A DNA stretch of 42,739 nt from Chiloscyllium plagiosum. Lineage: Eukaryota. Below, piece by piece: positions 4,259-42,342 of the stretch. Below the pieces are notes generated by a model, which did no database searches, had not been told where the DNA came from, and worked only from the letters and a program-made list of their open reading frames with translations. The position numbers were made by a program, and so were the translations under genes. Each line of letters starts with the position of its first letter. The first letter of the stretch is position 1. Location: the NCBI RefSeq assembly GCF_004010195.1, contig NC_057719.1, positions 15,014,269 to 15,057,007 on the forward strand, written 5' to 3'.

Positions 4259-4805
4259 CACTTGTCAGCCCAAAACTGGGTATTATCCAGGTCGCACTCC
4301 ATTTGAACATGGTTAAAAATCACACAACACCAGGTTATAGTCCAACAGGTTTAGTTGGAAGCACTAGCTTTCGGAGTGCTGCTCCTTCACCAGATGGTTG
4401 TGGAGGCCACAATTGTAAGGCACAGAATTTATAGCAAACATTTACAGGATGATATAACTGAAATTATACATTGAAAAATACCTTGATTGTCTGTTGAGTC
4501 TTTCATCTGTTCGAATAAAATGATAGTTTCACTTCCTTCAAGTGTAAATCACAAAACATTTTTTTAAACTTTGCATTCTCAGGTTAGCTGTAACAATTGG
4601 TGTTAGCTAGACAATATGTTGACGGTGTTAGCCCCCTGTGTTCTCTGTCTGTGCCATGATGTTTAGATTGATTCTAATCTAAAAAGTGAGATAACGGAGT
4701 TTTACATGAATTTATGCAGTTTTTGAGCCAAGTACAATGTAACTCTGCAAGTACAAATTTACCCCACAAAATATATGTATATGTGTGCATGTGGGTCTGT
4801 ATGTC

Positions 4806-5100
4806 ACAGACATGCACACAGACACTCACACACACCCTTACAGACACCCACACTCCCACTCACACATGCATCCTCTCAGAGACTTAGACCACTCTACACT
4901 CACACATACACATATACACCCTCTCACACAGACACTCACAACCCTCCACCCCAGACACACACTCACTCATGCACCCCCTCACAGACCTAAGACACTCTAC
5001 ACTCACATACACATACGTATACACTCTCACTCACACTCACAACCCCCTCAACTCAGACACACCCACACAGACACACACACACACACAGGCACACACACAC
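4806..5100. repeat. Degenerate (CA)n-rich spacer of the fold-back element
   Basis: cacacac/cactcac runs between the two arms. Confidence 0.9.
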
Positions 5101-5297
5101 AGACCCACATGCACACATATGCATATATTTTGTGGGGTGAATTTGTAATTGCAGAGTTACATTGTACTTTGTTCAAAAACTGCATGAATTCATGTAAAAC
5201 TCTGTTATCTCACTTTTTAGATTAGAATCAATCTAAACATCATGGCATAGACAGAGAACACAGGGGGCTAACACCTTCAACATATTTCCCCTCAGCC

Positions 5298-6056
5298 GTG
5301 GTTGACGATGCTCTCCACCGCATCTCCTCCACTTCCCGCTCCTCCGCCCTTGAACCCCGCCCCTCCAATCGCCACCAGGACAGAACCCCACTGGTCCTCA
5401 CCTACCACCCCACCAACCTTCAGATACATCGTATCATCCTTCGTCATTTCCGCCACCTCCAAACAGACCCCACCACCATGGATATATTTCCCTCCCTTCC
5501 ACTATCAGCGTTCCGGAAAGACCACTCCCTCTGTGAATCCCTCATCAGGTCCACACCCCCCACCAACCCAACCCCCACTCCCGGCACCTTCCCCTGCAAT
5601 CACAAGAAATGCATAACTTGCGCCCAGACCTTCCCCCTTACTTCCCTCCAAGGCCCCAAGGGATCCTTCCATATCCGCCACAAATTCACCTGCACCTCCA
5701 CACACATCATTTACTGCATCCGCTGCACCCGATGTGGCCTCCTCTATATTGGGGAGACAGGCCGCCTACTTGCGGAACGTTTCAGAGAACACCTCTGGGA
5801 CACCCGGACCAACCAACCCAACCACCCCGTGGCTCAACACTCCAACTCCCCCTCCCACTCCACCAAGGACATGCAGGTCCTCGGACTCCTCCATCGCCAG
5901 ACCATGGCAACACGACGGTTGGAGGAAGAGCGCCTCATCTTCCGCCTAGGAACCCTCCAACCACAAGGGATGAATGCAGATTTCTCCAGCTTCCTCAGTT
6001 CTCCTCCCCCCACCTTATCTCAGTCCCAACCCTCGGACTCAGCACCGCCTTCTTGA
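5298..6056 (+). pseudogene. C-terminal part of a PLE ORF: RT thumb/linker, Cys knuckle and GIY-YIG endonuclease (RT core absent)
   Basis: PLVLTYHP...CNHKKCITC (Cx4Cx2C linker)...HIIYCIRCTRCGLLYIGETGRLLAERFREH...EERLIFRLGTLQPQGMN; frame open for 252 aa. Confidence 0.9.
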
Positions 6057-6208
6057 CCTGCAATCTTCTTTCTGACCTCTCTGCCCCCATCACCTCTCTG
6101 GCCTATCACCTTCACCTTAACCTCCTTCCACCTATCACATTCCCAATGCCCCTCCCCCAAGTCCCTCCTCCCTACCTTTTATCTTAGCCTGCTTAGCACA
6201 CCCTCCTC

Positions 6209-6245
6209 ATTCCTGAAGAAAGGCTTATGCCTGAAATGTCAATTC
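6209..6245 (+). ncRNA. Minimal hammerhead ribozyme motif in pLTR (decayed stem III)
   Basis: CTGAAGA-A-AGGC-TTAT-GCCT-GAAA-TGTC. Confidence 0.6.
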
Positions 6246-6568
6246 TCCTGCTCCTTGGATGCTGCCTGACCTGCTGCGCTTTTCCAGCAATACATTTTTC
6301 AGCTCTGATCTCCAGCATCTGCATTCCTCACTTTCTCCTACCTTCAACATATTGTCTAGTTAACATCAATTGTTACAGCTAACCTGAGAATGCAACTTTT
6401 TAAAAAATGTTTTGTGATTTTCACATGAAAGAAGTGAAACTATCATGGTATTCGAACAGATGAAAGACTCAACAGACAATCAAGGTATTTTTCAGTGTAT
6501 AATTTCAGTTACATCACACTGTAAACTTTTGCTATAAATTCTGTGTCTTACAATTGTGTCCTCCACTG

Positions 6569-6605
6569 TCAACTGATGAAGGAGCAGTGCTCTGAAAGCT
6601 AGTGT
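6569..6605 (+). ncRNA. Minimal hammerhead ribozyme motif in pLTR (second family); mutated mirror copy on the - strand at ~4362-4395
   Basis: CTGATGA-A-GGAGC-AGT-GCTCT-GAAA-GCTA with palindromic AGCT stem III. Confidence 0.7.
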
Positions 6606-7194
6606 GCTTCCAGCTAAACCTGTTGGACTATAACCTGGTGTTGTGTGATTTTTAACTTTGTACACCCAGTCCAACACCGGCATCTCCAAATCATTTGAAC
6701 ATGGACTGCTTCAGTATCCGAGGTATCATGAATAATGTTGAACTTTGTGCAATTATCGGCGAATATCCCACTTCTCACCTTACGATAAACCGAAGGTCAT
6801 TGATGCAGGAGCTGATGCAGTTGAGAAGAGCATACTGCCCTGAAGAACCCCTGCAGAGATGTCCTGGAGCTGAGATTGCTGATGTCCAAGAAGTACAACT
6901 ATTTCTGTTTCAAGTGTTACTCCAACATCAGGGTGCTTTACATCTGATTTCCTTTTATCCCAGTTTTGCTGGGCATCCTTGGAACCCCATTTGGTCAAAT
7001 GCAGCCTTGATATCAAGGGCTGTCACTCTCACCTCCCCTCTGGAATTCAGCTCTTTTGTCCATGTTTGGACCAAGGCTGTAATGAGGTCAGGAGCCGAGT
7101 GGCCCTGGTGGAACTCAAATCGTATGTCAGTGAGCAATGCTACTTGTTAGTTTTAGTGGTAACAGCTTCCATCACTATGCTGATGATTAGTTAA

Positions 7195-8740
7195 GCATAA
7201 TTTCCCTTTCACAAAACTACACTGACTCTCCATGATTACTTTGTGTTTTTCTAAGTGCCCAGTAATAACTTATTGATTTTAACAGCTTCTCAATGACAAA
7301 CCTCAAGGAAGATGTTCTATAGTTCCCTGTTTTCTGCCTTCTTCCCTTCTTGAGTACATAAGTTATAAATGCTAATTTCCAGTCAAATGGAATTTTTCCT
7401 GACTGGAGAAAAATCTGTAAAATTAACACAAACATGTTTATGACCTTATTAGCCATCTCTTTTAGATGGATGAAGTCTATCTGGACCTCGAGACTTGTCA
7501 GTCCAGAGCTCCCGCAGTTGCTTTGTACCACTCCCCTCATGGTTGTTTTTTTGTTCTACACTCCTCTCTCTCTTCAACTCCTGATTTGCAGATATTACCT
7601 GAATTCTTTTTGTATTCTTTGTACAGAAGTCAGAAGCAAATCAGTTGTTCATTTCATCTGTCTTTTAATATCTGCTATTAACTCCTCATTCTTACTCTTT
7701 ACAGCAACAACACAATTTTTTTTCTTTTTAAATGCCTGTAAAACGTCTCGATATCGATTTTTGTGTTTCTAGCTAGCTTCTTCTCATACTTTAATATCTT
7801 TCTGTTGATTAACTTTAGAGTCATTCTCTGCCATTCTTTATATTCTGACCTATCATCTCTTATCATTGCACAGCTTGATGCATACTTTAGTTAACCATTG
7901 ATGATGGGTCCACCCTTTAAGTGGTTTCTTTATAGTACAAATATACTTCATTTGAGTGTTTTGAAATGTCCCTTAAATTTCTGCCACTGCAATCTATTTC
8001 TGATTCTCTTCATTGAGCTCAGATTTTATGTCTACAGAGTTGCCCTTAGTTAAGCTCTTAGTCACAATCTTCTACCTTTCAAACTAGATATAAAGTTCAA
8101 TAATATTGTGGCCACTGCAACTTAAGAGTGCTTTTAATCAGAGATCATTAATTAATTCTGTCACAGTATATACTACCAAGTCTAATATAACTTGATCTCC
8201 AATTCCAGAGCACGTTGCTCTAAGAAACTATCTTGCAAACATGCAGTGAATTCCTTATTCATATTGCTACTGTCATCTAATTTTTATGTATACATTAAAT
8301 TCTCACATGATTATTTCCAGTCCTTTATCACAAACATTTAATATACCATCTTGTATACTTTAACCTACACTATGGTTAATGTTGAGGCCTGTAGACCACT
8401 GTCACTCCTATTAGAGAATTCTTTCCCCTGCGGTACTTCATCACTAGTTAAACTAATTCTAAACCTGATCTGAATAAAGTGATATCTAACTGTTGCCCAA
8501 ATGCCATCCTGGATTAACAGTTCTACCTCTCCATCTTTACCTGGCTCCTTTCTTTTTAAGTGTCATGTACTCACTCAATACTCACACCAAATCCCTGTTA
8601 AACTGCAGCTACATTTCTGTAATGACTATCAGGTCATATTTATTAATCACAATGTAAGCAATCGGTTAATTTACTTTGTTATAAATGGCATGTGCATTCG
8701 CATACAAAGCCCTTAGTTTGTCCTTTTTATTATTTTTGCA
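7195..8740 (-). mobile_element. Heavily degenerate, internally deleted CR1 ORF2 (endonuclease to start of RT)
   Basis: ALYANAHAIYNKVN...YDLIVITE near 8710-8610; GKIPFDWKLAFITYVLKKGRRQKTGNYRTSSL near 7400-7300. Confidence 0.8.
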
Positions 8741-9689
8741 ACATGCACTGTTTGGAAATTTTATTATCAATTTACCATTTACTTGTCTATGCATATAAAG
8801 GGAAAAAAATGCATCTTTTGTTTCTATAGAACCTTCTAGAACTTCAGGCTAAATTTCTTTGAGTAATCATTGTTGAGGAAATTTGGAGAATTTCCAAATG
8901 CTGGCGGTTTCTTATCTTCCTTTGGTAGCAACAATGCCAGTTACAGTCATTACCACTTTTTGTAAACATTATACCATTATACAACTGGCTTACGGCTATC
9001 ATACTTCACTTCATAAAATACTTATGAAAATGTATACTGATGCAAAGCTCCCATTCAGCTCAATCTAAAAATCACAAAGAGAATAAATAGCCCATCTATA
9101 AATAAGCCTGTCTTCAGACTGATGTTCCAGAGATCAAGCCAACTTAGTTAATGGTAGTCAACCTATTATAGACATAAATATTTTAATCCTCACGTGATAG
9201 TTGCCAAAACCATTGTTAGTAATTCATAACACTACTTAATCTATAGCCTTGTTTAACTACTCCTGTTTGTGTGCTAAATTATAAGCAAGTAAAGGGTTCT
9301 CACAAACTTCACTCTTGAATGCTGTTCCTCATTTCCCCAACCCACCAGCTCTAAACACAATCTCCCTCCACCTCACTATAGCTGTGAAGGTCAAAACTGG
9401 AGTGAAGGTGAAGGGATTGTTCAAACTGCATCCATAACCATTATATGTGACAATGTGCAGAGGCTGTTTATGATCAGGAATGTTAGGCATTACGTTAAAA
9501 TCAACCTGAAGGAAAGAGAAAGAGAAAAGATGTCCTAAAATGCAATGATATGTTTTTGAGGTGTTATCACTATGTAAGTTATTAAATATATTAAGTGGTT
9601 ATCGACTCTCCATTTGAAAAACAACCTTGTAAGTTGTTGAAGTCTTCATACCCTTTCATTGCTCTTTGTTAACATTTATAATATTACAA

Positions 9690-10915
9690 TGAATCTCCGA
9701 AAACTGCCTCAATGTACCTACCTTTATCCTCAACAAGGGATTCACCTCCACGAATTTGCCACACTACCTGCCTTCCCAGAGCCACAATAGGGACCCTTAT
9801 ATCCTTATCTTACACCTCACAACCTGGATTGAATGAAGAGGCTCCACCGTATCTGCCATCTCCTTCACAGGGCTACCACCAAATACATTATCTCTTCCTC
9901 TTACTTTTCAACATTCTGAAAGTACGTTCCCTCTGAAACACTCTGGCCTCCTCATCCAGTGCCCTGACCACATCCCATAGAAGCACAGGGAGATCAAAGC
10001 AACTTGCTCACCACTTCCTTTTGCACTACCTGAGGCCCACAAACATTTATTTCATATGACATAGCAATTTACTTGCAATTTAACAAGCTATATTCACTAC
10101 TCAAACTGTGGTCTCCTCTACAATGGAGAAACCGAATGTAGGATGGATGACTGTTTCAGGGAAATGTGACTCAGCTGAAGAATCTAGTCATATGCTATTT
10201 TAATTACTATTCCACTCTGTCCTTGGGCTTTTACGTATTTCCAAAGAAACACAGAGTAAATTTATGGAACAACATCACATTTTTCAATCAAGTGCATTAC
10301 AACTGAGTGCAATGTTAAGTTCAACAACTCATGATCCTTTTTTTCAGCCAAGGGATGTTCATGACTCTGCTGTAAACATTTATACCTCTTCTGAATTTAC
10401 CCTCTGTTTCTATATTATCCCATTGCCAACCCTCTTTTGTTTTGCAACATTTTTGTAATTTAATCATTCCTGCCCCTCCACCCCATCACTGACAATCCCT
10501 TCATTTTTTAAATTTGATTTACTGTTGTCACATGTACCTAAGTACAGTGAAAAGTTTTGTTTTGCGAACTGTTCAGGCAGGCCATAACATATAGATCATA
10601 GGGTGATTGAACACAGTGAGGCATACAAAGGTACGGCTGCACAGGAAGTGTACAAAAGCAATATCAACATTAGATTTGATATTGGATAGCTCCATTCAGC
10701 AGTCTAAAAACAGCAGGGAAGAAGCTATTCTTGAACCTATTGCTGCATGTGTTTAAGCTTCTGTATCTTCTGCCTGATGAAGGAGTGTTCTCCTTTCCCT
10801 TCTCCTCTTGCCTCCACAGTTGCTTATAAATCAAAACAAACTGAAATGTTAGTGCTATTCTCTCTCCACAGATGCTGCCAGAGTTGCTGGGAGTGTTCAA
10901 CATTTTCAGTTTTTA
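9690..10915 (+). mobile_element. Old Penelope-like element remnant (GIY-YIG region plus pLTR), interrupted by a Rex1 fragment
   Basis: YIHYSNCGLLYNGETECRMDDCFRE at ~10089-10163 parallels the 5298 ORF; pLTR-like ctccacagatgctgccaga at ~10865. Confidence 0.7.
10510..10778 (-). mobile_element. Rex1/Babar-type LINE 3' end
   Basis: SGRRYRSLNTCSNRFKNSFFPAVFRLLN, followed by a UTR ending ...cactgtacttaggtacatgtgacaacagtaaa. Confidence 0.7.
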
Positions 10916-12212: not shown

Positions 12213-12411
12213 AAGATTAGCTCAGTTTGCTAGATGGCTGGTTTGTATTATAGAGTGATCCCAATAGCATATGCCCTGCATTGGCAGAGGTTACCAATGA
12301 GGGTCCCACCTTCTCAACCTCACTTCCTGCCTGAGGTGTGGTATCCCTCAAGTTAAGCCATCACCCATTGTCTCTCTCTCTCTCTCTCTCTGGTAGGACT
12401 ATGGTAACTTC
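12213..12411 (+). mobile_element. Old SINE-like repeat (family D) with internal (TC)10
   Basis: tagctcagtt A-box-like head; similarity to 1205-1391. Confidence 0.6.
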
Positions 12412-13974: not shown

Positions 13975-14560
13975 TTCATTGCACCAGTAATCTAGAGGCT
14001 GAGACCACTGGACTATTTCAAATCACATCAATTGAAGAGTTAAATTTGGTGAATTAAATAAGTTTTGAGTTAAAAGGAAAGTTTCAGAAATGGTGTCTAT
14101 GAAGATACCACATGACTGTCAAAGCCCAATAAAACAGAAATTGCTGGAGAAACTCGGCAGATCTGGCAGTTTCCTTGGAGAGAGAAACAATTAATGTTTG
14201 AGTCTGATATGACCCTCAGCTCCCAATAAGAGTCATATCTGATTTGGAACAATCGACTTTGCTTCTTTCTCTACAGATGCTGTCAAAACTGTTGAGTTTC
14301 TGCAGCATTTTCAGTTCCATTCAGATCATCAGCATCTAATGTATTTTGCGATTTATGATAAAACCCCATTTGGTTTACAATCATCCTTTAGGAAATCTGA
14401 TGTCTTTAACTAATTTAGTTTAGATGTGAACTGCAGATCTATCTATAGTTGACTCTTTAACTACCCATCAAAATGGCGTGTATTCAACAAAACAGCTAAC
14501 CTTCTTTAGTGCAATTAAGCGTGGTCAATAAAATCCACTCCAACTTGTGAATGAATAAAA
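13975..14560 (+). mobile_element. Degenerate tRNA-SINE (family B), interrupted at ~14128-14350
   Basis: aaaaccccatttggttt...cctttaggaaatctg...gttgactcttt matches 21225-21325. Confidence 0.6.
14128..14352 (+). mobile_element. Old fold-back PLE pLTR element
   Basis: aaacagaaattgctggagaaactcggcagatctggcag is mirrored by ctgtcaaaactgttgagtttctgcagcattttcagtt; gatatgacc/agtcatatc at the centre; tail agcatct. Confidence 0.65.
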
Positions 14561-15304: not shown

Positions 15305-15815
15305 ATAGTGGAAGGATACTCTTAAACTGGAGAGGGTTCAGAATAGATTTACCAGGATGTTGCTGAGAATGGACGGGTTTGAGATGTAAAAATAGACGGA
15401 ATGGTTGGAATGTTTTTCACTGGAGCGTAGGAAGCTGAGGGGCGACCTTATTGAAATTTGTAAAATCATGAGGGGCATAGATAAAGTGAATGACACCTTT
15501 TCCCAAAGGTGGGGGTGTTTAAAACTAGGGGGCATATTTTTAAAGTGAGAGGAGAAAGATTTATAAAGGATATGAGGGGCAATTTCTTTGTACAGAGAGT
15601 GGTTTGTGTGTGGAATGAACTGCCAGAGAAAGTGATAGATGCAGGTACAGTTACAACGTTTAAAAGATATTTGGATAAGTTCACAAATAGGGAAGGTTTA
15701 GAGGGATATGGGCCAAGCACAGGCAGGTGAGATTAGTTTAGTTTGGGAACATGGACAGTGTGGACCAGTTGGACCGAAGGGTCTGTTTCCATGTTGTATG
15801 ACTCTATGACTCTAT
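15305..15815 (+). mobile_element. CR1 LINE 3' end
   Basis: KTRGHIFKVRGERFIKDMRGNFFVQRVVCVWNELPEKVIDAGTVTTFKRYLDKF; (TATGACTC)n tail. Confidence 0.9.
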
Positions 15816-15940
15816 GATAGAGGTCTTCTGCTCGAAAGGTTGACTGTCCTGTTCTTCAGATGTTGCCAGACCTGCTGTGCTTTACCAGCACCACACTTTT
15901 CGACTCTGATCTCCAGCATCTGCAGTCCTCACGTTCTCCT
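15815..15940 (+). mobile_element. Solo PLE pLTR fragment inserted in the CR1 tail
   Basis: Decayed hammerhead region followed by cctgctgtgctttaccagcacc...tctccagcatctgcagtcctcac; ctatgactc on both sides. Confidence 0.75.
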
Positions 15941-16374
15941 CTATGACTCAATGACTCTTTAGCTGAATCGACTAACGAACAAGATAGAAATGGACTAACC
16001 TAGACCTACATAACCTCTATGAAACCAACACCTTTGCAGAAGCTAACTTTGGAGCCCATCTCTAGAAACAAAGCAGCAAGGTTTTATTGTGTTTTTAAAA
16101 ATATTCTGCTTTCCTATTCTTGTATCCGAGGTGAATGATATTACACTTTCTAGCTTCTTACATCAGACTCTATCAGTCACTGCATTGCCCTGCATCAACA
16201 GTGCATTCATGTTTCTAAGCAGCAAATCCCTTGGCCAAACACAAATGGACTGCCACTTGCCCAAAATAGAACTTTGACTATTTATCATCATTTTCCACGT
16301 CATTTTACCAACTCAGCTTCCAATCCCACCAACTAATTTTCAATTAACGCAATGATCGCTTTCTCCAAAAGAAT

Positions 16375-16684
16375 GGGCGGCATGGTGGCACAGTGGTTAG
16401 CACTGCTGCCTCACAGCGCCAGGGACCTGGATTTGATTCCTGCCTTTAGTGACTATGGAGTTTGCACATCCTCCCCGTGTCTGCGTGGGTTTCCTCTGGT
16501 GCTCTGGTTTCCTCCCACAGTCCAAAGATGTGCAGCTCAGGTGAATTAGCCATGCTAAATTACCCAGAGTGTTAGGTGCATTAGTCAAAGGGAAATGGGT
16601 CTGGGTGGGTTACTCTTCGGAGGGTTGGTGTGGATTTATTGGGCCAAAGGGCCTGTTTCCACATGTAGGTAATCTAATCTAATC
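16375..16684 (+). mobile_element. HE1-type V-SINE
   Basis: gggcggcatggtggcacagtggttagcactgctgcctcacag tRNA head; V-domain ggagtttgcacat..tccccgtgtctgcgtggg; (TAATC)n tail. Confidence 0.9.
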
Positions 16685-16862
16685 AGTATTCCAGTTCAGA
16701 ATTAACCATCAGAAGCAAATACTATTACATTTTGGAATTTTTGTACAGCTCTAAGACTGTAAGAAACTTAGCATTAATGAATTTACCTCCAATGCTAAAA
16801 CCACAATATAATCTCAGGTTTCAGGACCTCCCTAAGCAAAGATGGGAGGTTTCCACCAAAGT

Positions 16863-17283
16863 TTAGATTACAGTGGTGCTGGAAAAGCACAGCAGGTTAG
16901 GCAGCATCCGAGGAGCAGGAAAATTGACATTTTGAGCAAAAGCCCTTCATCAGGAATGGAGGCAGGGAGCCTCCAGGGTGGAGAGATAAATCGGGGNNNN
17001 NNNNNNNNNNNNNNNNNNNNNNNNNNNNNNNNNNNNNNNNNNNNNNNNNNNNNNNNNNNNNNNNNNNNNNNNNNNNNNCTGACAGTGTGGTGCTGAAAAA
17101 GCACAACAGGTCAGGCAGCATCCGAAGAACAGGAGAATCGACGTTTCAGGCTGGAACCCTTCATGAGGAATCCCAAAACGTCGATTTTCCTGCTCCTCGG
17201 ATGCTGCCTGACCTGCTGTCCTTTTCCAGCACCACTCTAATCTAGACTCTGGTTTCCAGCATCTGCTGTCCTCACTTCTGCCT
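16863..17283 (+). mobile_element. Complex tandem/inverted PLE pLTR insertion spanning the assembly gap
   Basis: TSD GGTTTCC(A/T)CCAAAGT at 16848-16862 and 17284-17298; two minus copies and one plus copy. Confidence 0.8.
16997..17078. other. Assembly gap (82 N)
   Basis: Run of n. Confidence 1.
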
Positions 17284-18246
17284 GGTTTCCTCCAAAGTCA
17301 GTCTTGGGTGCAGAAGTAGTTGCTTGATAACAATTCATTTGGTACCCTTTCAACCCTCTCCGGCCTCTTAGGGAATATCTGGATTTCACCCTAGCAACCT
17401 CTTTGTTGTTACCATTTATAAATAGATTAACATCTAAAAATGAGAATTCAGGAAAAAAATTGAGTTCAGAATCTGTCTGGCTCTCAACTGAGTTCCCTCT
17501 TGCCTATTTTCACCTTTGTTTTTAGATTCTCTTAAAGCTGTGTAAAGACACATTGTGACGTGACTTGACCTGTTCCTAATTTGGTGGATTTGAGATTTGC
17601 ACAATCTGTCAAGTGTATGTTTCCCATTTCTCCTGTTCAAGCGATGTGGCATATGCATAGTACTTCGAAAGTAATTCACACCTTGCAGCTCTTGAGGGTT
17701 TTGACAATGTGATAAATTGTTAAGTAAACACAAGGATTTTTTTTTACATTGTAAATGAGGCAAGGGGAGGAGAGTACCTGTAAATTGATTCCAACTTCTG
17801 TTTGAAGAAGGCAATAATTGAATGCTGCCAAATTCAATCAGAACATTACAGAAGTGGGGCCGTTCAGATCCTCAAATCTGTTCCACCATTCATTGAAGGC
17901 CAAATTGTACTCAACTTAATTTTCTTACCTGAGTTTTACACATAGTTTGCAGTATATAGGTCAACCCTGCGTACCAAATAACCTTGGTTTCTCAGTGCCA
18001 AAAAATCATGCTTTTGTAGATACTTAGCATATAAATCAAATCTCTTTTACAGCCATATTTAGCTCCTTTTAAACCATTAAACACTCTGATCATCGCACAC
18101 CGCAATCTCCCACATTCCGTATTTATATTTGTAGTCAGCCTCAGTTTTTCACCCCAGAAAAGCTAGTTGCAGTGTAAGTTTATGGAATCAAGATGATGAT
18201 ATAGGTTGTGCTGTAAAGAAACTGCATAGGAGTTTGTTTAACACAT

Positions 18247-18699
18247 TCCTCATTCCTGATGAAGGGCTTTTACCTGAAACGTTGATTTTCCTGCTCCTCG
18301 GATGCTGCCTGCCCTGCTGTGCTTTTCCAGCACCACACTCTCAACTCTGGAGCGGCACGGTGGCTCAGTGGTTAGCACTGCTGCCTCACAGCACCAGTCT
18401 CCCAGGTTCGATTCCAGCTTCGGGCGACTGTCTGTGTGGAGTTTGCACATTCTCCCCGTGTTTATGTGGGTTTCTCCAGGTGCTCCAGTTTCCTCCCACA
18501 GTCCAAAGATGTGCAGGTCAGGTAAATTGGCCATGTTAAATTGCCCATAGTGTTAGGTGCATTAGTCAGAGGGAAGTGTGTCTGGGTGGGTTACTGTTCG
18601 GAGGGTCGGTATGGACTGGTTGGGCCAAAGGGCCTGTTTCCACACTGTAGGGAATCTAATCTAATCTAATCTCCGGCATCTGCAGTACTCACTTCCTCC
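18247..18699 (+). mobile_element. Solo PLE pLTR element with hammerhead motif, split by an HE1 SINE
   Basis: TSD TTTGTTTAA(C/G)ACAT at 18233-18246 and 18700-18713; CTGATGA at 18256. Confidence 0.85.
18349..18672 (+). mobile_element. HE1-type V-SINE (full length)
   Basis: A box tggctcagtgg, B box ggttcgattcc, V domain, (TAATC)n tail. Confidence 0.92.
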
Positions 18700-18930
18700 T
18701 TTGTTTAAGACATGCCTGCACCAAAGCATATTGTGCATGAGTAGGTGAGTGACAAGACAAAATGGGACCTCCAACGAAACAAATCAAGCACGAAGCTGAT
18801 TTCAAGCTAAAAGTCAAAACATTTGCTTACTGTACACAAGGGAGTCTGATGTTGCTGAGAAACTTCTGCAAGAATGGAAGAAGAAAGAATACACCTTGAG
18901 GAAGATCCTAAGACCTATTCCCCCTGAGGA

Positions 18931-19133
18931 AGCTGAAAATGTGTTGCTGGAACAGCGCAGCAGGTCAGGCAGCATCCAGGGAACAGGAGAATCGACGTTT
19001 CGGGCATAAGCCCTTCTTCAGGCTTATGCCTGAAACGTCGATTCTCCTGTTCCCTGGATGCTGCCTGACCTGCTGCGCTGTTCCAGCAACACATTTTCAG
19101 CTCTGATCTCCAGCATCTGCAGACCTCACTTTC
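18931..19133 (+). mobile_element. Young fold-back PLE pLTR element (82-bp arms, 1 mismatch, ~31-bp tail)
   Basis: Arms 18931-19012 and 19021-19102; TSD TCCCCCTGAG(G/A)AAG at 18919-18932 and 19134-19147; intact hammerhead core on the - strand. Confidence 0.9.
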
Positions 19134-19153
19134 TCCCCCTGAGAAAGATGCCT

Positions 19154-19272
19154 ATTCCTGATGAAGGGCTTTTGCCAAAACGTCGATTTTCCTGCTCCTC
19201 GGATGCTGCCTGACCTGCATCACTCTGATCTAAACTCTGGTTTCCAGCATCTGCAGTCCTCACTTTTGCCTA
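19154..19272 (+). mobile_element. Solo PLE pLTR fragment with internal deletion
   Basis: attcCTGATGAagggcttttgccaaaacgtcg...tttccagcatctgcagtcctcacttttgcct. Confidence 0.8.
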
Positions 19273-20142: not shown

Positions 20143-20151
20143 AGCCACTAA

Positions 20152-20452
20152 TTTAGATTAGATAGATTAGATTAGATTCCCTACAGTGTGGAAACAGGCC
20201 CTTCGGCCCAACAAGTTCACACCGACCTTCCGAAGAGCAACTCACCTTGACTAATTCACCTAACACTACGGACAATTTAGCATGGCCAGTTCACCTGACC
20301 TGCACATCTTTGGACTGTGGGAGGAAACCGGAGCACCCGAAAGAAACCCACGCAGACACGGGGAGAATGTGCAAACTCCACACAGACAGTTACCCGAGGC
20401 GGGAATTGAACACGGGTCAGTAGTGCTAACCACTAAGCCACCATGCCGCCCC
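20152..20452 (-). mobile_element. HE1-type V-SINE
   Basis: Reverse complement of 18349-18672 with short deletions; (GATTA)n tail. Confidence 0.9.
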
Positions 20453-20537
20453 CTTTTAGAAAGCAAGTCAATTTTATTCAAGCTGTATTCACAATTTAAC
20501 AATGATCAGGCTAGAACAAATGCGTCTTTCAATAACA

Positions 20538-20663
20538 GGGAGAAAGGTGAGGATTGCAGATGCTAGAGAGTCAGAGTCGAAAAGTATAGCACTGGAAAAG
20601 CAGAGCAGGTCAGGCAGCATCTGAGGCACAGGAGAGTCGACATTTCATGCATAAACCTTCAGA
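20538..20663 (-). mobile_element. Solo PLE pLTR fragment
   Basis: Reverse complement of the pLTR consensus from the decayed hammerhead core to the tail. Confidence 0.8.
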
Positions 20664-26420: not shown

Positions 26421-26444
26421 ATACATTGGCTGAAGGTATTGCAA

Positions 26445-26558
26445 GGAGAAAGTGAGGTCTGCAGATGCTGGAGATCAAAGTTCCACATACCCTACGAAGA
26501 TGGATTGTTCCACATACCCCCTGACCTGCTGTGCTGTTCCAGCAATAAAGTTTCAACC
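26445..26558 (-). mobile_element. Collapsed fold-back PLE pLTR element with filler DNA
   Basis: TSD CTGAAGGTATTGCAA at 26430-26444 and 26559-26573; both ends match the ends of 33928-34141. Confidence 0.85.
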
Positions 26559-27284
26559 CTGAAGGTATTGCAAAGCTAAACCACATGAAACAAGGAGGGG
26601 AATGGCTTCAAACTAGCAAAAATAAAATATACAACTGACAATCAAGACTTTTCTCCAAGCATGTAAAGTGATTCATGCTTGGTTGTAAGGTAAAACAATG
26701 GACATTAAAGACCATAGAAAATACATAAAGGAGCAGATTATTTGGGCTATGCTTGTGATAATGTTACACATACACACCTCCTCCTTTCAGCTTGTATACA
26801 CTATCTCACCCTATTGTCATATCCATCTAATCCTCTCTCCTTCGCCTAGATTTCCTTTAAATGCATCAAATCCATTTAAGAAGCTATTAGATATTCAAGA
26901 ATTGGAACAGTGGATTCTTATGGATGGATGAATTGAGATGGGCCAATTTTCCTTCACATCATTTATTGTTATAGAGGTGATTCCATGACTCCGGAATGTT
27001 GATGAAGGAATAAAAATACAACATTGTTTTTCTGATTCTCACAAACATGATCGCTGTCAGTCTGACTCCCCAGTGGGAACACAACATCATGGGATTACCA
27101 CATATTCTGAAGCTGCCTTAAAGGGACAATACCAAAATGCCCGGAATAGGAGTTGTTCAAGGCAAGCTGTTTTGAATGTGGATAAATCAGAACAAAATTG
27201 GTGATTCAAAAGGTAAAAAGAAAAGGGATAGGCATCTTTAAAAGTGTCACAAATGTGCAAAAATTCCAGAAAAAAAAACAAAGT

Positions 27285-30298: not shown

Positions 30299-30328
30299 CT
30301 CATTTACAGCTTGGCTTATTTCTCCACA

Positions 30329-30562
30329 TAGGCAGAAGTGGGTACTGCAAATGCTGCAGATTAGAGTCAAGATTAGGGTGGTGCTGGAAAAGCACAGCAG
30401 GTCAGGTAACATCCGAGGAGCAGGAAAATTGATGTTTCAGGCAAAAGCCCTTCATTAGGCCATCAAAAGTCATTCCTGATGAAAGGCTTTTGCCCGAAAC
30501 ATCGATTTTCCTGTTCCTCGGATGCTACCTGACCTGCTGTGCTTTTCCAGCACCACTCTAAT
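30329..30562 (-). mobile_element. Fold-back PLE pLTR element
   Basis: TSD CTTATTT(C/T)TCCACA at 30315-30328 and 30563-30576; ~85-bp inverted arms around a short spacer; CTGATGA at 30476. Confidence 0.88.
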
Positions 30563-30712
30563 CTTATTTTTCCACACGTCTAGTTCAGAGAGTAGATATT
30601 TATTATTGAAATTAATTTGGTGGATGTGATTTGAAATAACTCCACAGAGGTCAGTATCCCATCATCAAGTCACCCTTTATTTACCAAGTGGAGATTTCTT
30701 GACACTGATCCA

Positions 30713-31351
30713 TAAGACCATAAGACCATAAGACATAGGAGCGGAAGTAAGGCCATTCGGCCCATCGAGTCCACTCCGCCATTCAATCATGGCTGATGGG
30801 CATTTCAACTCCACTTACCCGCATTCTCCCCGTAGCCCTTAATTCCTTGTGACATCAAGAATTTATCAATCTCTGCCTTGAAGACATTTAGCGTCCCAGC
30901 CTCCACTGCACTCTGCGGCAATGAATTCCACAGGCCCACCACTCTCTGGCTGAAGAAATGTCTCCGCATTTCTGTTCTGAATTTACCCCCTCTAATTCTA
31001 AGGCTGTGTCCACGGGTCCTAGTCTCCTCGCCTAACGGAAACAATTTCCTAGCATCCACCCTTTCCAAGCCATGTATTATCTTGCAAGTTTCTATTAGAT
31101 CTCCCCTTAATCTTCTAAACTCCAATGAATACAATCCCAGGATCCTCAGCCGTTCCTCGTATGTTAGACCTACCATTCCAAGGATCATCCGTTTGAATCT
31201 CCGCTGGACATGCTCCAGTGCTAGTATGTCCTTCCTGAGGTGTGGAGACCAAAACTGGACACAGTACTCCAAATGGGCACAGTACTCCAAATGGGGCCTA
31301 ACCAGAGCTTTATAAAGTCTGCTTTTATATTCCAATCCTCTTGAGATAAAT
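30713..31351 (-). mobile_element. Young 5'-truncated CR1 LINE (ORF2 C-terminus open)
   Basis: LYKALVRPHLEYC...VQFWSPHLRKDILALEHVQRRF...FFSQRVVGLWNSLP; (TAAGACCA)n tail; TSD GACA(C/A)TGATCCA at 30701-30712 and 31352-31363. Confidence 0.93.
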
Positions 31352-31462
31352 GACAATGATCCAGCTCCCTCTGAGCCAGCTCTCAGAGCGAACAGAACCT
31401 CTGACACTCCTGTTTAAATCTGCCAGCCAAGGCTCTCTGATTGAACCAGATTAACAATCCCA

Positions 31463-31538
31463 CTGAGGATGTCACCTAGACAGGGGACGAAATGTCTGCA
31501 ACACAAATTCCCAGCTCGGCGAACAGAACCACAACAAC
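31463..31538 (+). mobile_element. 76-bp PLE-type insertion consisting of a hammerhead motif plus tail (third family)
   Basis: TSD ATTAACAATCCCA at 31450-31462 and 31539-31551; CTGAGGA-T-GTC.CCT-AGAC-AGG.GAC-GAAA-TGTC. Confidence 0.8.
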
Positions 31539-31609
31539 ATTAACAATCCCAATCAGGGAACTCATATTCTATGAGCTCCTGATTTCTTAAACTATTGCAG
31601 TCCATTTGT

Positions 31610-33497: not shown

Positions 33498-33749
33498 CAT
33501 CAGGCAGTGGCAACTTTCTGCTCTTGTGACTAATCTCTATAACAAGACAGGACTCTGTCCTTCTAAACACAAATTGCGAGAAACAACAGGTGTTCATATT
33601 GATGTATGTACAGTGAAAGTCAAAGAAACAACCCTCGTGCTCACCTAAAACTGTCTACTGTCCCGTCACGAGACAGGAGCAGACTCAAATGGCAAAATGG
33701 CCAAATTTCTGCTCCTATCTCTTATGGTCCTCTGAGACTATCACCCTCT

Positions 33750-33912: not shown

Positions 33913-33927
33913 GACTAAAATGAGGAA

Positions 33928-34141
33928 AAAGTGAGGTCTGCAGATGCTGGAGATCAAAGTTGAAACTTTATTGCTGGAACAGCACAGCAGGTCAGGCAGC
34001 ATCCAGGGAACAGGAGATTCGACGTTTCGGGCACAGGCCCTTCTTCATTCCTGAAGAAGGGCCTGTGCCCGAAACGTCGAATCTCCTGTTCCCTGGATGC
34101 TGCCTGACCTGCTGTGCTGTTCCAGCAATAAAGTTTCAACT
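33928..34141 (-). mobile_element. Very young fold-back PLE pLTR element: perfect 90-bp inverted repeat, 4-nt loop, ~30-bp tail
   Basis: Arms 33958-34047 and 34052-34141 are exact reverse complements; TSD ACTAAAATGAGGAA at 33914-33927 and 34139-34152. Confidence 0.95.
34047..34082 (+). ncRNA. Intact minimal type I hammerhead ribozyme motif
   Basis: ATTC-CTGAAGA-A-GGGC-CTGT-GCCC-GAAA-CGTC-GAAT: stem I ATTC/GAAT, stem II GGGC/GCCC, palindromic ACGT, GTC cleavage triplet. Confidence 0.75.
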
Positions 34142-35189
34142 AAAATGAGGAATCCTACTTACTCCACAATAACAGATGTAATGCCAAAACCGCTGTCAGC
34201 CTAATTGTTCATTCTGGTGGCACTCACATGCAACCACAGTCTGGCCAACTGGAAGCAACCTTGCAAGGGTTGCTATTAAAGGATTAGTGCTCATCGGCCA
34301 AGTTTCATCCAATCCTTTCAAAGGAACCCCTGCAGCCTAACTCCACTGACAATGGCCAGGTGGCCTCTGTCTCCACAATGACTGCTCCCTCATACTTAAC
34401 CAGCTGCTAATTCCTAAAGGAACTGAGGTATGGAGTGCTCCCCTTAATGAAAATATTATTCAAGCATTTCCTGCTTCTGAGTTCTCAATCAGCCTCATAA
34501 CTGCCGATCTCCTCTGCAACCTCGATCCAGGCTTACTTTGTCCTGTTCTGTTGAGTTATCACCTTTAGAGTGATATCCCTTTAAGAGTTTCAGGTGTAAA
34601 TGAGCCAAGTACCTGAATGTTATCACACAAATCTATATTACATGGTCTCTGCACTGTAGTACTCAAGGCACGGGCTGTGCCTATTACTCTGTAATATACA
34701 TATTATTTCAGCTGTAAATACATGTTTAGGATTGTTTGATTAAATGGAATACATACAACTTAATTGTATTACATTTTGTTAATCCTAAAATATAATCAAA
34801 TGATTTACAGCTGGGAAGTTTAAAAAAACCCACAAAGAGGGCACCAGTCTTCCAGAATTAAGGAGAACAGAAGCAAACAAAACATAACAGTCATCTAGAA
34901 ATTCCCACAGTATAGCAAACAGAAACAAGTAAGATGTATTTGTAATCAGTATCTCTGAACTGGCCAGGATCATGCCACAGCTGACTGATTTTGAACCCAT
35001 CCAAACTATAGGCAATTCCAAATTGGGACTTTGCTGAACTAAGAGAAAGCGTACCTAAGTTCAACAACAGAAAAAGGCAGGCTACATTCAGAAACAACGC
35101 AGAGCCAACAGAATAGCCCTTGGAACAAGTTTCAAGCCCAAGTTAAATAGAAAAAAAAACTAAGGACAGCACTGAAAGCACATTTGGAT

Positions 35190-37945: not shown

Positions 37946-38149
37946 TAGCCTTTGGGAAAAGTTAGTTTTAGTTTTGTCTTTCTTGTACAAAGGTAGGCTC
38001 CAATCAGGAAGACTGTGATTGTGTTCCGCTGCTGTCTCCCTTTAAAAATGGTGGCAGCAGACCCATTTGTGCCAGCTGGCTTTGTGGCTGGCACTGCTGT
38101 GCCCATCTCCTTCTCTGGAATGGTTGGCCTGATTGCCCGTTGACGGTTA

Positions 38150-38750
38150 ATTGATTGAGATGGTAGTGCCATCTGGAATCAAGTTGTTAGTGTTGTGCCA
38201 TCCACTTTTAGCGCCAGCTGCCAAACCTCAGCTCTGCTCATTAAAAACCTAGTCAAGCATTGGATCACCTTGCACAATCTTCAATGGTTCATCATGACAT
38301 TTTGCCATTCTAATGGTTCCTTCTCAGCCAATCTCTCTGGCACTAAAAATGTAATGGATATTGAAAAAGGCAAGACATTTTGCTCAATGTATATCCTATA
38401 AAGAAGTTAAATGTCACAGGGGTTAAGTTTCATCTTTGGGTCTAAGCCAGTTCCCACCCACTCAGAAAGTCAAGTGCAAAGAATGCTCACTTCCTTAGGG
38501 TAGGCTTATTTGCATAATCAGTCTTGGAACTTGGTGTCAAGTTGGATCTGTCTTGGGTAAGTTATGGGGCGGGGGTGGATTTTAGTTTCTGTTGTGCGTG
38601 CTTTTGGGTGGAGTTGAAGTGGAAAATGCCTCAAAATGTAGCAGAAATAAATTCTGTCTGATTTCGATCTATTTCTGGATACACACACTCTCCTGAAGAG
38701 CTTGTGGTAGGCAGTGGAGACTCTCATCCAAACATGGTGGTAGTTTCAGG
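38150..38750 (-). mobile_element. Possible degenerate LTR-retrotransposon gag/protease fragment
   Basis: Weak motifs WQLALKVDGTTLTT (protease N-terminus-like) and YPKEVSILCT (decayed zinc knuckle). Confidence 0.35.
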
Positions 38751-39289
38751 AATATATTCAAAGCAGTGTGAAATCATAAGAGTGGCTACACAAATCTATT
38801 CCCTTTTACATTTCTGCATGACTGCTTACTGATTCTGCTCAAAACATCGGAGAGTTGATTTTAACATAACAACAATGAGTACATTGAGTTCATGGGCTGT
38901 AAAATGTCCTGATATCATAAGAGGTGATTATATTAAATGTAAGACTGCCAAATATTTCTTTTCTTTTAATACAATTCAAACAGCAAATTGAAAAGGGCTT
39001 CTTTTACATAATGTTTTAAAGATCGCAGCTAAATGTTGTAACTATTTTTTGTGATGAGTTGCTATACTGACAACTGTAGGCTTCTAAATGTGAAAGGGGT
39101 TTAGAAGACAGAGTCCCGGTGAGACCACCATAGCCGACATTACCCCTTCGTATTATGGAATTCCTTCTCAGAACTCCTCGGCCCATTGTCCGCTCGAAGG
39201 AGAAGGAATATGGAAAGAAACAAGGATGCTGCTCATAGTTCAAGACACAGGAGAAGGTTTACTCACACCCAGACTTACCCTCTCCTAGC

Positions 39290-40000
39290 CAAGTGCACAG
39301 GCTGTGCCAAACATTCCTGCACTTTCACTGAGAAGCATGAGGAGACTGTGGCTCTCCAGGGAGCCAATGAAAAATGTATATTGTCTGCACTGCCAGCCTC
39401 TGAGGCAATCGCTGCACTGCCTAATGCAGGAAAGGTCATTGCAACTCTTGAACTGTTTTGTTCCAGTGGCTCCTTTCAGACTGCAAAGGGGGACCTAAGT
39501 GATGTTAGCCAATCTGCAGACCATACAAGAATCCAGCAGATCAGTTTATCAGAGTTAATGCCTTCCACTGTTTTCCATGCAGACGGCCAGGAACAACAGG
39601 GGAGACCTGTTACTGCTCAAAAATCCAGTCTTTACAAATTGCATAGATTTTGACTTCATGATTTGAAACAATTTGTGCTCTATCCGTTCTGTGATTATCT
39701 GTAGATCACATCTGCCATGAATGCAGTTCACCACAGGCTAAGATGCTGTAAAAGTCTTCTGTTTCCTAAAGGAAACAAAGTACAAGTAAGGTCTCTGCAG
39801 GTGGCCTTACGACAACTTTGCGATAAGCACGTGCACCTCCTGAAGAGATATGCAAATATGCTCAGTGCTTCGAAAAAGGACCACGACTGAGCCCATTAGG
39901 AATCTCATACGTATGACAGAAATCTGCAGGAGTGGGGCCTTCGTACATTACAATTTATCCAAACTGTCATATATCCTTGAGGTTCACTGCTGAATAGGTT
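39290..40000 (+). pseudogene. PIF/Harbinger (HARBI1-like) transposase relic
   Basis: MRRLWLSRE and ALPNAGKVIATLELFCSSGSFQTAKGDLSDVSQSADHTRIQQI (~ALPVAVKVTAALNFFASGSFQ...GD..GISQSA.H.CI); RSGAFVHYNLSKLSYILEVHC near 39930-39990. Confidence 0.75.
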
Positions 40001-40142
40001 TACAGTACTGTGTAATGAAGGATACCAATGGATCTGACAGAGAACTCATAGAAAGATGTGACTGTGTTACATTCAGTTCCCTAGGTGGAGTTCCTAAATT
40101 ATTATAGTTCAAAACGGGATCCAGAAAATTGGCAAGCTCCAG

Positions 40143-40550
40143 CTAATCCTAACCCTAACCCTAACTCTGACCCTATCACTAACCCTGATCCAAATCTTAA
40201 TGCTAACTCTACCCTAATCCTAAATGTAATGCTAAACCTAACCCTATCCTTAACCCTCACCTTAACCTTAATGTTAACCCTCACCCTAACCCTAACCTTA
40301 ACCCTAAATGAACTCTAACCCTAACCTTAACCCAGACCCTAACTTTAATGCTAACCCTGATCCTATTCCTAACACTAACCCCAAGCCAACTCTAACTCTA
40401 ACCCTGACCTTAATCCTAACCCTAACTGTGACACTAACCCTCACTCCACCCCTAGCCCTAACTCTGATCTAAACTATAATCCTGACCCTAATACTAGCCA
40501 TAAACCGAATCCTAATCCTAAATCTAACTATAACCCTAATCATAACCTGA
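40143..40550. repeat. Degenerate interstitial telomere-like array (CCCTAA)n, ~68 hexamers
   Basis: 6-bp periodic ccctaa/ctctaa/tcctaa/ccctga/ccttaa variants. Confidence 0.9.
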
Positions 40551-41222
40551 TGTTCCGGTTCCCCTTCATTATTTGCCTACCTCCTTGATTGGTTGTATCA
40601 GAACCAACTTCCAAAGGATTCTCCACTTCTGGATATCTTTTGCCCACATTAAATGGCTTTGTGTTTTAAAAGGAGTCCATTTATCCAGGCTTTTTTGACT
40701 TAATAAAGGTTGAGTTTATTAATTACTGAATGTGAGAAGTTATAATAACACCATACACATGTATACAGATTACAAATAAGAAGTGAGTTAAAAGATACAT
40801 ATTAGTTAAATTAATCACTACAGGTAACTTGCGAAGATTTGTGAAGTAATTTGTATAGGCATTTTTCTCTGCCCAATAGCACACATAGCACACAAACGGC
40901 TCACTAGTTTTTAATCCCTGTTTTTTTGCATTCCTGAAACGGGGAGATACAAACCTTGTCAATCCTTTTTCTCCCATCATGTTCAAAGTCTGAGATAACT
41001 CCCAGGCAATTACAGTTTTGCTGCAGTGCATTTCTTCCTAACACATCCATCACTGTGAAGCTTCCAGGACAACTCATCATTCCAGAACACTCTACGATCT
41101 CTCTCTTCAGACAGCCACTGAATTTACGTAAGCAGGTGTAAGTTCTTTATCATAAACAAAAGCATATAATTGAAAATTCAGTATGTCAGTAAGTACATTG
41201 GGATTCCAAAGTCCTGATGACA
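40551..41222 (-). mobile_element. Putative 3' LTR (672 bp) of the adjacent Gypsy element
   Basis: Minus strand starts TGTCA right after a purine tract (ggggaaag) and ends GAACA; AATAAA at ~40715. Confidence 0.6.
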
Positions 41223-41990
41223 CTTTCCCCACAAGATGAATAAAATGACATACATTCTCATTTCATTACAAAAGGAGGAAATCAAAATCAAAATATGAAC
41301 TTAAAACAACAAATTTACACACATTCATTCCTCCAACCTTGGTCAATTACATCTCCTCAGCACTATCTGTAACATCTGTCGGCTCTGGATGTTTGAGATA
41401 AAGTTCTGTTTCCTGGGATTAGGGTTAATTTTTAAGTGGTGCAGTTGAAGGATCAGGCTCCAACATAATAACCTGGTATTCTGGGTCTTAAATTTCTCTG
41501 CAAATGTTAATGAGTTGCATTCAGTATAGACAGTGGTCTCTTTGTATCCATTTCGGGCACATATCCCAAAGTGTTTGAGATGAAAATCAAACTCAGTGTT
41601 TCATTCTTTATTGTGGAGCACCGTCTCTGATGCTTTTATAGCTTTATTTGGAGGGGTACCCGATTGATCTCTCTATTCTGGAGTCACCTTCCTGAATGAA
41701 ATCAGCCTTTATCCCATTGTTGCTCGTGTCAGTGGTTACTTTAAATGACTGTGTAAAGCTTGGAGCTGCCAGCATAGGATCACTGACAAAAATGGCCTTC
41801 AGCATTTCAACAGCTGTCTGGAATTTCTCAGTCTGTGCTAGCTTTGCTCTTTTTCCCCCCTTTTGTAGGTCTGGCAGTGACACAGCTGCTGTGCTGATGT
41901 TCGGGGAAACCTTTTGTGGAAAGCAAGACCCCTCGAGAACCTCACAATTTCCCATTTTGTTGTGAGAATCCAGAAGCATGCTGCCACTTA
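41223..41990 (-). mobile_element. Gypsy-type RT tether/RNase H remnant, directly followed by PPT and LTR
   Basis: FQTAVEMLKAIFVSDPMLAAPSFTQSFKVTTDTSNNGI...IGYPSK; VYTECNSLTFAEKFKTQNTRLLCWSLILQ...RKQNFISNIQSR. Confidence 0.85.
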
Positions 41991-42087
41991 TACTCAGCAG
42001 TCCTACCCTATACTGAAGCTACCGTGCTCTAAGGAAGCTTGCTCCACCCTGCAGCTATAACACGACACTAGGTTGGATAACAGTGTG

Positions 42088-42135
42088 TAGATTAGAGTGG
42101 TGCTGGAAAAGCACAGCAGTTCAGGCAGCATCCAA
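42088..42135 (-). mobile_element. 48-bp internal pLTR fragment between 13-bp direct repeats
   Basis: GGATAACAGTGTG at 42075-42087 and 42136-42148; insert matches 30370-30414. Confidence 0.75.
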
Positions 42136-42217
42136 GGATAACAGTGTGGCATATATCTCTTGATGCAAGAAATCTCACTCACTGAAATTCCTAACTGGCT
42201 GGCAATTTCCACCATCC

Positions 42218-42342
42218 AGTCCTGAAGAAAGGTTACACCCAAAACGTCGACTTCTCCACCTCCTGATGCTGCCTGGCTTGCTGTGTTCTTCCAGCCTCCT
42301 GCCTGTCTACTTTGGATTCCAGCACCTGCAATGTTTTGTTGG
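42218..42342 (+). mobile_element. Solo PLE pLTR fragment (divergent subfamily)
   Basis: CTGAAGA-AAGGTTACACCC-AAAA-CGTCGA...tgatgctgcctggcttgctgtg...ttccagcacctgca. Confidence 0.75.

Follow-up and report, generated by a model that had tools for sequence, protein, structure and literature searches.

Which kind of element scattered short hammerhead-bearing pieces over the genome of the shark Chiloscyllium plagiosum? The question is raised by a stretch of 42,739 nucleotides (contig NC_057719.1, positions 15,014,269 to 15,057,007; the window in the following), for which an original prediction had offered two readings, extreme 5' truncations of Penelope-like retrotransposons (PLEs) or a retrozyme-like non-autonomous class mobilized by a PLE enzyme. 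Our analysis points to the former: the insertions are very probably dead-on-arrival 3' pseudo-long terminal repeat (pLTR) ends of endonuclease-positive (EN+), Neptune-type PLEs. This identity is based on target-site duplications (TSDs) of 13-15 bp, two fixed 3' ends, colinearity with a GIY-YIG-coding copy (family A) and a minimal hammerhead near most stub 5' ends. The reading as extreme 5' truncations is thus supported, with the qualification that truncation is sharply non-random. The host genome bears a PLE end stub every few kilobases; all insertion, TSD and arm analyses cover the single 43-kb window.

Penelope-like insertions and their coding relative

Where about 15 PLE-related pieces had been noted, we count 16 insertions, using a family-A profile together with families B and C: twelve belong to family A, one each to B and C, and two are older A-like copies. 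The arm profile of family A yields 22 matches, which resolve into the twelve family-A and the two older A-like insertions. The insertions make up about 11% of the window (4,943 bases summed, including an 82-N gap and a CA-rich centre). All ten TSDs listed previously are present with lengths of 13-15 bp and at most one mismatch, and such flanks occurred in 7 of 4000 randomly placed intervals. An eleventh TSD (15797/15942) lies inside a microsatellite and is ambiguous, and a 10-bp TSD at 42207/42356 is weak; the flanks checked at 19151, 20537, 14140 and the remnant at 10000 revealed none. The description of the ten TSD-flanked pieces as ribozyme-bearing holds for eight of them, while those at 26430 and 42075 contain no hammerhead.

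According to the open reading frame (ORF) list of the window, only two copies retain coding sequence (5286-6040 and about 10000-10314), just as had been noted, and 14 of the 16 insertions are non-coding. The family-A coding copy (5287-6339 on the plus strand, 5273..6353 with its 14-bp TSD) is 5'-truncated past the reverse transcriptase (RT) core. Its ORF remnant encodes a C-X4-C-xx-C linker (C100-X4-C105-xx-C108) followed by a C-terminal GIY-YIG domain with CCHH residues. The Pfam match to GIY-YIG (E 1.6e-4, 22.3 bits) falls just below the cut-off of 22.6, and C143, C146, H165 and H181 (the CCHH) as well as the linker residues are invariant among 11 aligned proteins. Forty-six longer protein relatives were found, many with RVT_1 (PF00078) upstream; the closest relatives of the ORF at 5298 stem from Chiloscyllium punctatum (69%), Rhincodon typus (64%) and Hypanus sabinus (56%). 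Of the GIY-YIG/RT enzyme proposed at this position, the GIY-YIG part is thereby confirmed; the remnant comprises only the post-RT end, the zinc linker and GIY-YIG, with no RT catalytic motifs. A CX2-5CxxC linker between RT and endonuclease has been described for Neptune and Nematis (PMC8557442), and our label Neptune-type rests on this linker, itself common to Nematis, not on RT phylogeny.

Downstream of its ORF, the coding copy continues with a pyrimidine-rich 3' untranslated region, a hammerhead (6209-6244, C3=6213) and a tail (about 6305-6339). The short family-A pieces are colinear with its last 50-135 bases (92% identity for 19020-19136), and comparison with the coding copy revealed no added head, no module of their own and no poly(A) tail. 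The PLE features pLTR, inverted 5' copy, 30-40 bp tail at one end and TSD are present in families A and B. Within the window, no RT/GIY-YIG ORF could be linked to families B or C, and a metagenome scan with a stretch of B gave 0 matches. Judged by their architecture, both families are putative PLE ends as well.

The hammerhead motif and its decay

The claim that PLE pLTRs carry minimal type I hammerheads is supported in the window, as is the statement that three otherwise unrelated sequences have a common hammerhead architecture with three different stem II sequences. Core positions are given in conventional hammerhead numbering. The motifs comprise the core CUGANGA/GAAA/UH, helices I and II, the bulge and a palindromic tetramer. 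The latter had been placed after GAAA, which needs correction: it includes A15.1 and U16.1 and reads GAA-ACGT-C in family A, GAA-AGCT-A in B and GAA-ATGT-C in C, where it is not palindromic. A strict minimal-hammerhead descriptor gave four matches in the window versus a mean of 0.03 (maximum 1) in 30 shuffles. A relaxed descriptor allowing one core mismatch gave four versus 0.77 (maximum 3), which is not clearly above chance; its stem counter overlooked some decayed copies. Motif-like strings at 5973, 14287, 23888 and 35366 fail stem tests and are not hammerheads.

The best-preserved hammerhead of the window (34047-34082) lies in the right arm of the insertion at 33914, and the minimum-energy structure of the 37-nt motif in this arm consists of helices I and II. 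In all three constructs of 51-56 nt suggested earlier for cleavage assays, the hammerhead fold is not the minimum (z -1.65 to -0.22); 34040-34095 is a poor test construct, as bases from the inversion junction pair into an 8-bp hairpin that covers the core. Family B has a decayed hammerhead in its left arm (4365..4396, minus strand; core change A6>G giving CTGGTGA, stem I of 3 bp) and a whole core in its right arm (6570..6604, plus strand; C3=6573, cut site 6601|6602). Stem I of the right arm is broken in the window copy; its base pairs are found in 757 of 827 reads from our RNA data, which consist of one poly(A) single-cell run from a related or the same organism (7,839 reads aligned; a sister run contributed none). 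For family A, the same reads have majorities of 1260/1441 for ACGT and 1395/1553 for G1.1. The solo stub of family C starts at its core (C3=31463) and its stem II has one mismatch in seven positions.

In 11 family-A arms the stems pair in 82% of cells, compared with 9-43% when slid. Core conservation and stem covariation relative to flanks had been put forward as a test, with a divided outcome: the core is conserved above the flank, and covariation within family A is no higher than in shuffles (307/500). Across A, B and C the stems differ yet still pair (three examples). The suggested Rfam search returned no hammerhead family among 15 matches with E up to 10. Matches to miRNA families, below gathering score, are located on inverted insertions; Rfam hence overlooks these motifs and labels the palindromes wrongly as weak miRNA-like hairpins.

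A whole core is kept in seven of the 16 insertions (5273, 18233, 18919, 30315, 33914, the B right arm and C). Four of the seven sit in inverted repeats, and three inverted family-A copies with a whole core fold into hairpins of -162 to -200 kcal/mol. Non-CpG changes affect 2/109 core cells versus 23/161 cells in the downstream flank of 11 family-A arms (p=0.0004, in a test that treats the arms of one insertion as independent though they are not). CpG sites are prone to decay in the genomes of vertebrates; the motif has six such positions, which are changed in 15 of 65 cells, all 15 being C>T or G>A. Because RNA reads mostly carry the pairing letters, core changes are rare and CpG sites decay, source elements appear to have kept the motif while copies decay neutrally, and we infer that the hammerhead is maintained by selection in source elements and not in stubs.

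The low frequency of core changes, together with the abundance of cassettes in RNA, might also be taken to indicate that the dispersed motifs are functional ribozymes retained by the host. We regard this as extremely improbable: selection on source subfamilies would lead one to expect the contrast between core and flank, the motif's CpG positions decay freely and exclusively by transitions, more than half of the whole cores lie within inverted repeats, and poly(A)-anchored B reads run through and upstream of the cut site. The term ribozyme cassettes, as used in the original prediction, therefore overstates function, given that only seven of the 16 insertions keep a whole core, that CpG sites decay and that inverted copies form long hairpins.

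Arm ends, RNA reads and a model of insertion

In each family the 3' end occurs in two versions separated by 33-36 nt, and arms either bear or lack the tail between them. All six inverted insertions in our pairing count (4300, 16848, 18919, 26430, 30315 and 33914; the old one at 14140 was left out) combine a tail-bearing with a tail-less arm, for which a coin flip gives odds of 1 in 64, and six of the seven solo insertions are tail-bearing. Four family-A insertions have long arms, and in each of them no sequence of the window comes closer to an arm than its partner (90-100%).

The six insertions have arms on both strands. Counting from C3 as +1, the arms at 33914..34152 (14-bp exact TSD) start from +2 (left, tail-bearing) and -6 (right, tail-less), are 100% identical over 90 nt and meet with 3 nt of junction microhomology. 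At 18919..19147 (14-bp TSD), a tail-less left arm from -1 and a tail-bearing right arm from +9 are joined by 2-3 nt of microhomology. Fillers occur at two further family-A junctions: about 10 nt at 30315..30576 (14-bp TSD), between a tail-bearing left arm from -1 and a tail-less right arm from -6 with a whole core at 30476, and 39 nt at 26430..26573 (15-bp exact TSD, no hammerhead), where the left arm is the tail alone and the right one is tail-less from +53. The latter filler (26481-26519) is bounded by a 12-nt direct repeat. Three arms are present at 16848..17298 (family A, 15-bp TSD), a tail-less one (16863-16996, minus strand) followed by the 82-N gap, a second minus-strand arm (17079-17173) and a tail-bearing plus-strand arm (17170-17283). 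The middle arm is of another subfamily and the N gap intervenes, pointing at a template switch or mis-scaffolding. The family-B insertion (4300..6704, 13-bp TSD 4300-4312/6692-6704) is formed by a tail-less left arm (4313-4804, minus strand) and a tail-bearing right arm (about 4805-6691, plus strand) that has a CA-rich centre and harbours the nested coding copy of family A. Its arms agree in 455 of 492 aligned bases; the 36-nt tail (6656..6691, plus strand) resides on one arm only, with contig joints at 6657-6659 and 6692-6694.

The native loop at 33914 is part of the tail-less arm, and simple fold-back of that cDNA can therefore not give the tail of the other arm. The PLE protein of Anolis nicks and extends both strands, starting at two internal sites that bound the tail (PMC11167929). 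From the mixed tail pairing, the junctions and the Anolis result we infer priming from both nicks, one per site, and consider such two-nick priming rather probable. Fold-back self-priming of one cDNA or of antisense RNA could likewise yield palindromes. It has been proposed (PMC3846280), the arms at 18919 and 33914 are 99-100% identical and the native sequence before the core can form a mini-hairpin of 3-4 bp, but it accounts neither for the invariable end of one arm precisely at the tail boundary nor for the arm at 26430 that is tail alone, the fillers (30315, 26430) or the deleted centre at 18919; we consider it unlikely. A search of the open literature for twin priming by Penelope, with subscription papers outside its reach, retrieved nothing relevant.

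Some contigs contain the family-A tail twice in tandem (6337/6339 to 6305). Others join the family-A 3' end (6339) tail-to-tail to family-B 3' ends (6657-6694), with 9-27 contigs per joint, and B ends are also joined to each other. The A/B joints may reflect a target preference for PLE termini, or chance at such density.

The 5' ends of the arms cluster as well. Thirteen of 17 family-A arms (16848L left out, as it borders the N gap) start within -10 to +20, and none starts within 3 nt of the cut at +28|+29; family C also starts at its core. For 13 of the 16 short arms to fall into this 31-nt window, p is about 1e-10 under uniform or exponential nulls, the window having been picked post hoc and paired arms not being independent. 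Offsets were read by hand; local alignments mostly agree within a few bases and over-extend for some arms. Plain random truncation with no special stop at the hammerhead would fit the heavy 5' truncation of PLEs in general (PMC8557442) and the starts elsewhere of four of the 17 family-A arms and both B arms. With the limits just given, the clustering speaks against it, as does the read depth over the ORF, which is flat and not sloping, rendering random truncation improbable. The stubs reach beyond the cut on its upstream side and hence derive from templates that were intact at this point; unprocessed RNA is also what the Anolis PLE uses in vitro (PMC11167929).

Depth is roughly flat over the ORF and higher on the cassette, 31-fold in RNA reads and 12- and 7-fold in two contig sets. 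This step does not equal copy number; subfamilies with less than 82% likeness in their upstream part exaggerate it. RNA reads of the family-A cassette come from both strands (788 vs 1286), a pattern that passengers within introns should give. For family B the reads show a strong sense bias, and poly(A) follows position 6630 in 405 of them and 6633 in 490, 895 in all. These loose ends mark a polyadenylation signal region (6613..6633, plus strand). Its sites are preceded by an A-rich hexamer at 6613 at a distance of 12-15 nt; they lie about 30 nt beyond the cut and ahead of the two B 3' ends (6655, 6691). Sense depth stays at 500-790 over the 200 nt upstream of the cut, and many polyadenylated molecules are therefore uncleaved. 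Several indel haplotypes suggest more than one locus. The reads could be host transcripts borrowing the B signal; if the site is the element's own, the mature mRNA would lack the RT start sites at its 3' end. At 6573-6574, where the B core begins, 16 and 19 contigs show opposite-strand joints. As a side aspect, the B poly(A) site may be donated to host transcripts.

These data also bear on the retrozyme-like class, in which the PLE enzyme would act in trans to retropose short hammerhead RNAs after their excision and circularization. Stubs are in large excess over coding copies (14 of 16 insertions are non-coding), a preprint from 2026 derives animal retrozymes from pLTRs, counts monomer derivatives and includes one chondrichthyan with retrozymes (10.64898/2026.07.22.740005), and a back-joint from 6339 to 6250 appears in one RNA read and two contigs. 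Yet the 19 rows returned by Tandem Repeats Finder (TRF) for the window include no hammerhead-bearing tandem, stubs are colinear with the coding copy at up to 92% identity, and no family-A arm starts at the cut site. In the poly(A) single-cell run, whose library is blind to short cleavage products and circles, there is no site where many RNA molecules begin or end; the joints listed, which leave aside 658 weaker ones, include none at 6240/6241 or 6601/6602, a weak test for circles. Moreover, the family-A cassette is read on both strands and the motifs are minimal, not canonical with loop-loop contacts. For the insertions in the window we thus consider this class very improbable; retrozyme arrays may exist elsewhere in the host genome.

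For the truncated PLE ends, we propose the following course. The element's GIY-YIG enzyme would make staggered nicks 13-15 bp apart, and each nick could prime cDNA at one of two internal RNA start sites, giving a tail-bearing and a tail-less arm. The RNA template would be uncleaved at the hammerhead and copying would usually end just past the core. A single cDNA would leave a solo stub; where two were linked through their 3' ends, via microhomology or a filler, a head-to-head palindrome would result. The inserted copies would then decay neutrally. Regarding the 5' stop, run-off at the end of the RNA has not quite an even chance in our estimate, and arrest of RT is a realistic possibility.

A more specific version is possible though somewhat doubtful: the stubs may be integrated "strong-stop" cDNAs, with the pLTR acting like a retroviral LTR. 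Transcripts would begin about 10 nt ahead of the hammerhead core and receive their poly(A) about 30 nt beyond the cut; both RT start sites would lie further downstream, so that the mature mRNA would retain them only in its 5' pLTR. An RT dimer primed by both target nicks would copy about 90-130 nt and run off the RNA 5' end. If the jump to the RNA 3' end failed, solo stubs or tail/tail-less palindromes would arise; a successful jump via the shared start-to-poly(A) segment would lead to a full copy with two direct pLTRs.

Several points weigh against truncated PLE ends formed in this manner. Families B and C are without a coding copy in the window and owe their PLE status to architecture alone, and the evidence as a whole is drawn from the window, one set of aligned reads and contigs, protein relatives and publications. 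Identity of partner arms could stem from later gene conversion, the insertion at 16848 mixes two subfamilies across a gap, and in junction palindromes Arkhipova et al. see the outcome of self-priming with an antisense template (PMC3846280). The clustering of 5' ends is subject to a post hoc window, hand-read offsets and the exclusion of 16848L; the arms that start elsewhere include both B arms, which are long (490 and 820 nt). Finally, the depth step on the cassette is not a measure of copy number.

Further insertions, neighbouring sequences and known systems

The remaining insertions are solo stubs or older copies. On the plus strand, family-A solo stubs are found at 15814..15941 (tail-bearing, start inside the core, ambiguous TSD in a microsatellite), 18233..18713 (14-bp TSD, whole core at 18256) and 19149..19272 (tail-bearing, internal deletion, TSD not found). 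The tail boundary of the second is split by a short interspersed element (about 18352-18659), which we take to be HE1-like and of which more copies lie near 16377 and at 20160-20450. On the minus strand, 20537..20661 is tail-bearing with a start inside the motif (TSD not found), and a tail-less 48-bp stub occupies 42075..42148 (13-bp exact TSD, no hammerhead). A divergent family-A solo stub at 42212..42345 (plus strand) has 67% identity to the nearest arm, a G12>A change in the core and the weak 10-bp TSD. Family C is represented by a plus-strand solo stub at 31450..31551 with a 13-bp exact TSD. Two insertions for which no TSD was found are older: an inverted A-like one with degenerate hammerheads (14119..14345) and a broken copy (9999..10915, plus strand) with a GIY-YIG remnant at 9999-10314 and a probable 3' end at 10857-10915.

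Some 45 nt beyond the cut, the family-A cassette (6262-6290 and equivalents) has a branch-point-like word, a pyrimidine tract and CAG, an arrangement resembling a splice acceptor; in one subfamily (33914, 26430) AATAAA follows directly after this stretch. Elsewhere in the window, a degenerate array of telomere-like hexamers lies at 40143-40547 (68 copies, 63% matches by TRF). On the minus strand, there is a remnant with an RT_RNaseH_2 domain (41644-42018, E 4e-9) resembling LTR retrotransposons and another with an 8-nt tandem tail and no Pfam match of note (30710-31413), presumably the 3' end of a CR1-like long interspersed element.

Twin priming of L1, reportedly described by Ostertag and Kazazian, is said to produce an inverted 5' part, a TSD and junction microhomology, as seen here. 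Unlike in L1, the arms in the window copy the same sequence from fixed sites and not adjacent, non-overlapping segments.

Minimal hammerheads in metazoan PLE pLTRs have been reported in numbers of about 4,000 for the coelacanth genome and 9,000 for that of Xenopus, with several families per genome and solo motifs "probably related to truncated PLEs" (PMC4209133). The motifs in the window resemble them in the type I core, the bulged base after A9, G10.1-C11.1, the palindromic 15.2-16.2 and the short stem I, as well as in the occurrence of several families, mostly as solo motifs with some opposite-strand pairs (100-700 bp apart in that study). Solo and opposite-strand motifs have been published for coelacanth, Xenopus and schistosomes; a tested monomer did not cleave and dimers cleaved weakly (PMC4209133). 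The density is different, as 16 insertions in 43 kb would extrapolate to much larger numbers. The text and supplementary file 2 of that study mention no shark, and breakpoints and tail pairing are not analysed in the portions drawn upon here.

With Neptune-clade EN+ PLEs (PMC8557442, PMC3846280), the elements have in common the C-terminal GIY-YIG with CCHH, the CX2-5CxxC linker, 5' truncation, an adjacent inverted copy, a one-sided tail of 30-40 bp, solo pLTRs and TSDs. They differ in that most insertions are little more than a pLTR end and in that TSDs have 13-15 bp compared with 8-10 bp in Adineta. Poseidon of Anolis carolinensis in vitro also features two 3' ends bounding the tail, priming of both strands, an uncleaved template and no RNA-seq ends at the cut site (PMC11167929); it belongs to a different clade, and the portion of that paper drawn upon here does not treat inverted insertions, clustered 5' ends or a poly(A) site. 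Like animal non-LTR retrozymes (PMC7229834; Li, Clavereau & Pollet 2026), the stubs are non-coding and PLE-related and bear type I hammerheads. Retrozymes are defined as tandem repeats with a hammerhead in each unit (PMC7229834; 10.64898/2026.07.22.740005) and form head-to-tail tandems and circles, whereas the copies in the window are solo or head-to-head, have TSDs and end off the cut site.

Our literature search, with subscription papers and Repbase/Dfam outside its range, found no report of shark PLE stubs, shark Penelope hammerheads or pLTR polyadenylation. The published pattern of abundant solo minimal hammerheads from truncated PLEs is thereby extended to a shark, at very high density. 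The value is mechanistic: for the questions of how PLEs replicate and what the hammerhead contributes, a stub-rich genome provides a large natural data set. Fixed tail pairing, 5' ends just before the core and an early poly(A) site make two-nick priming with run-off testable. If the strong-stop reading is true, it would supply missing steps of PLE replication, and hammerhead cleavage would be dispensable for these insertions.

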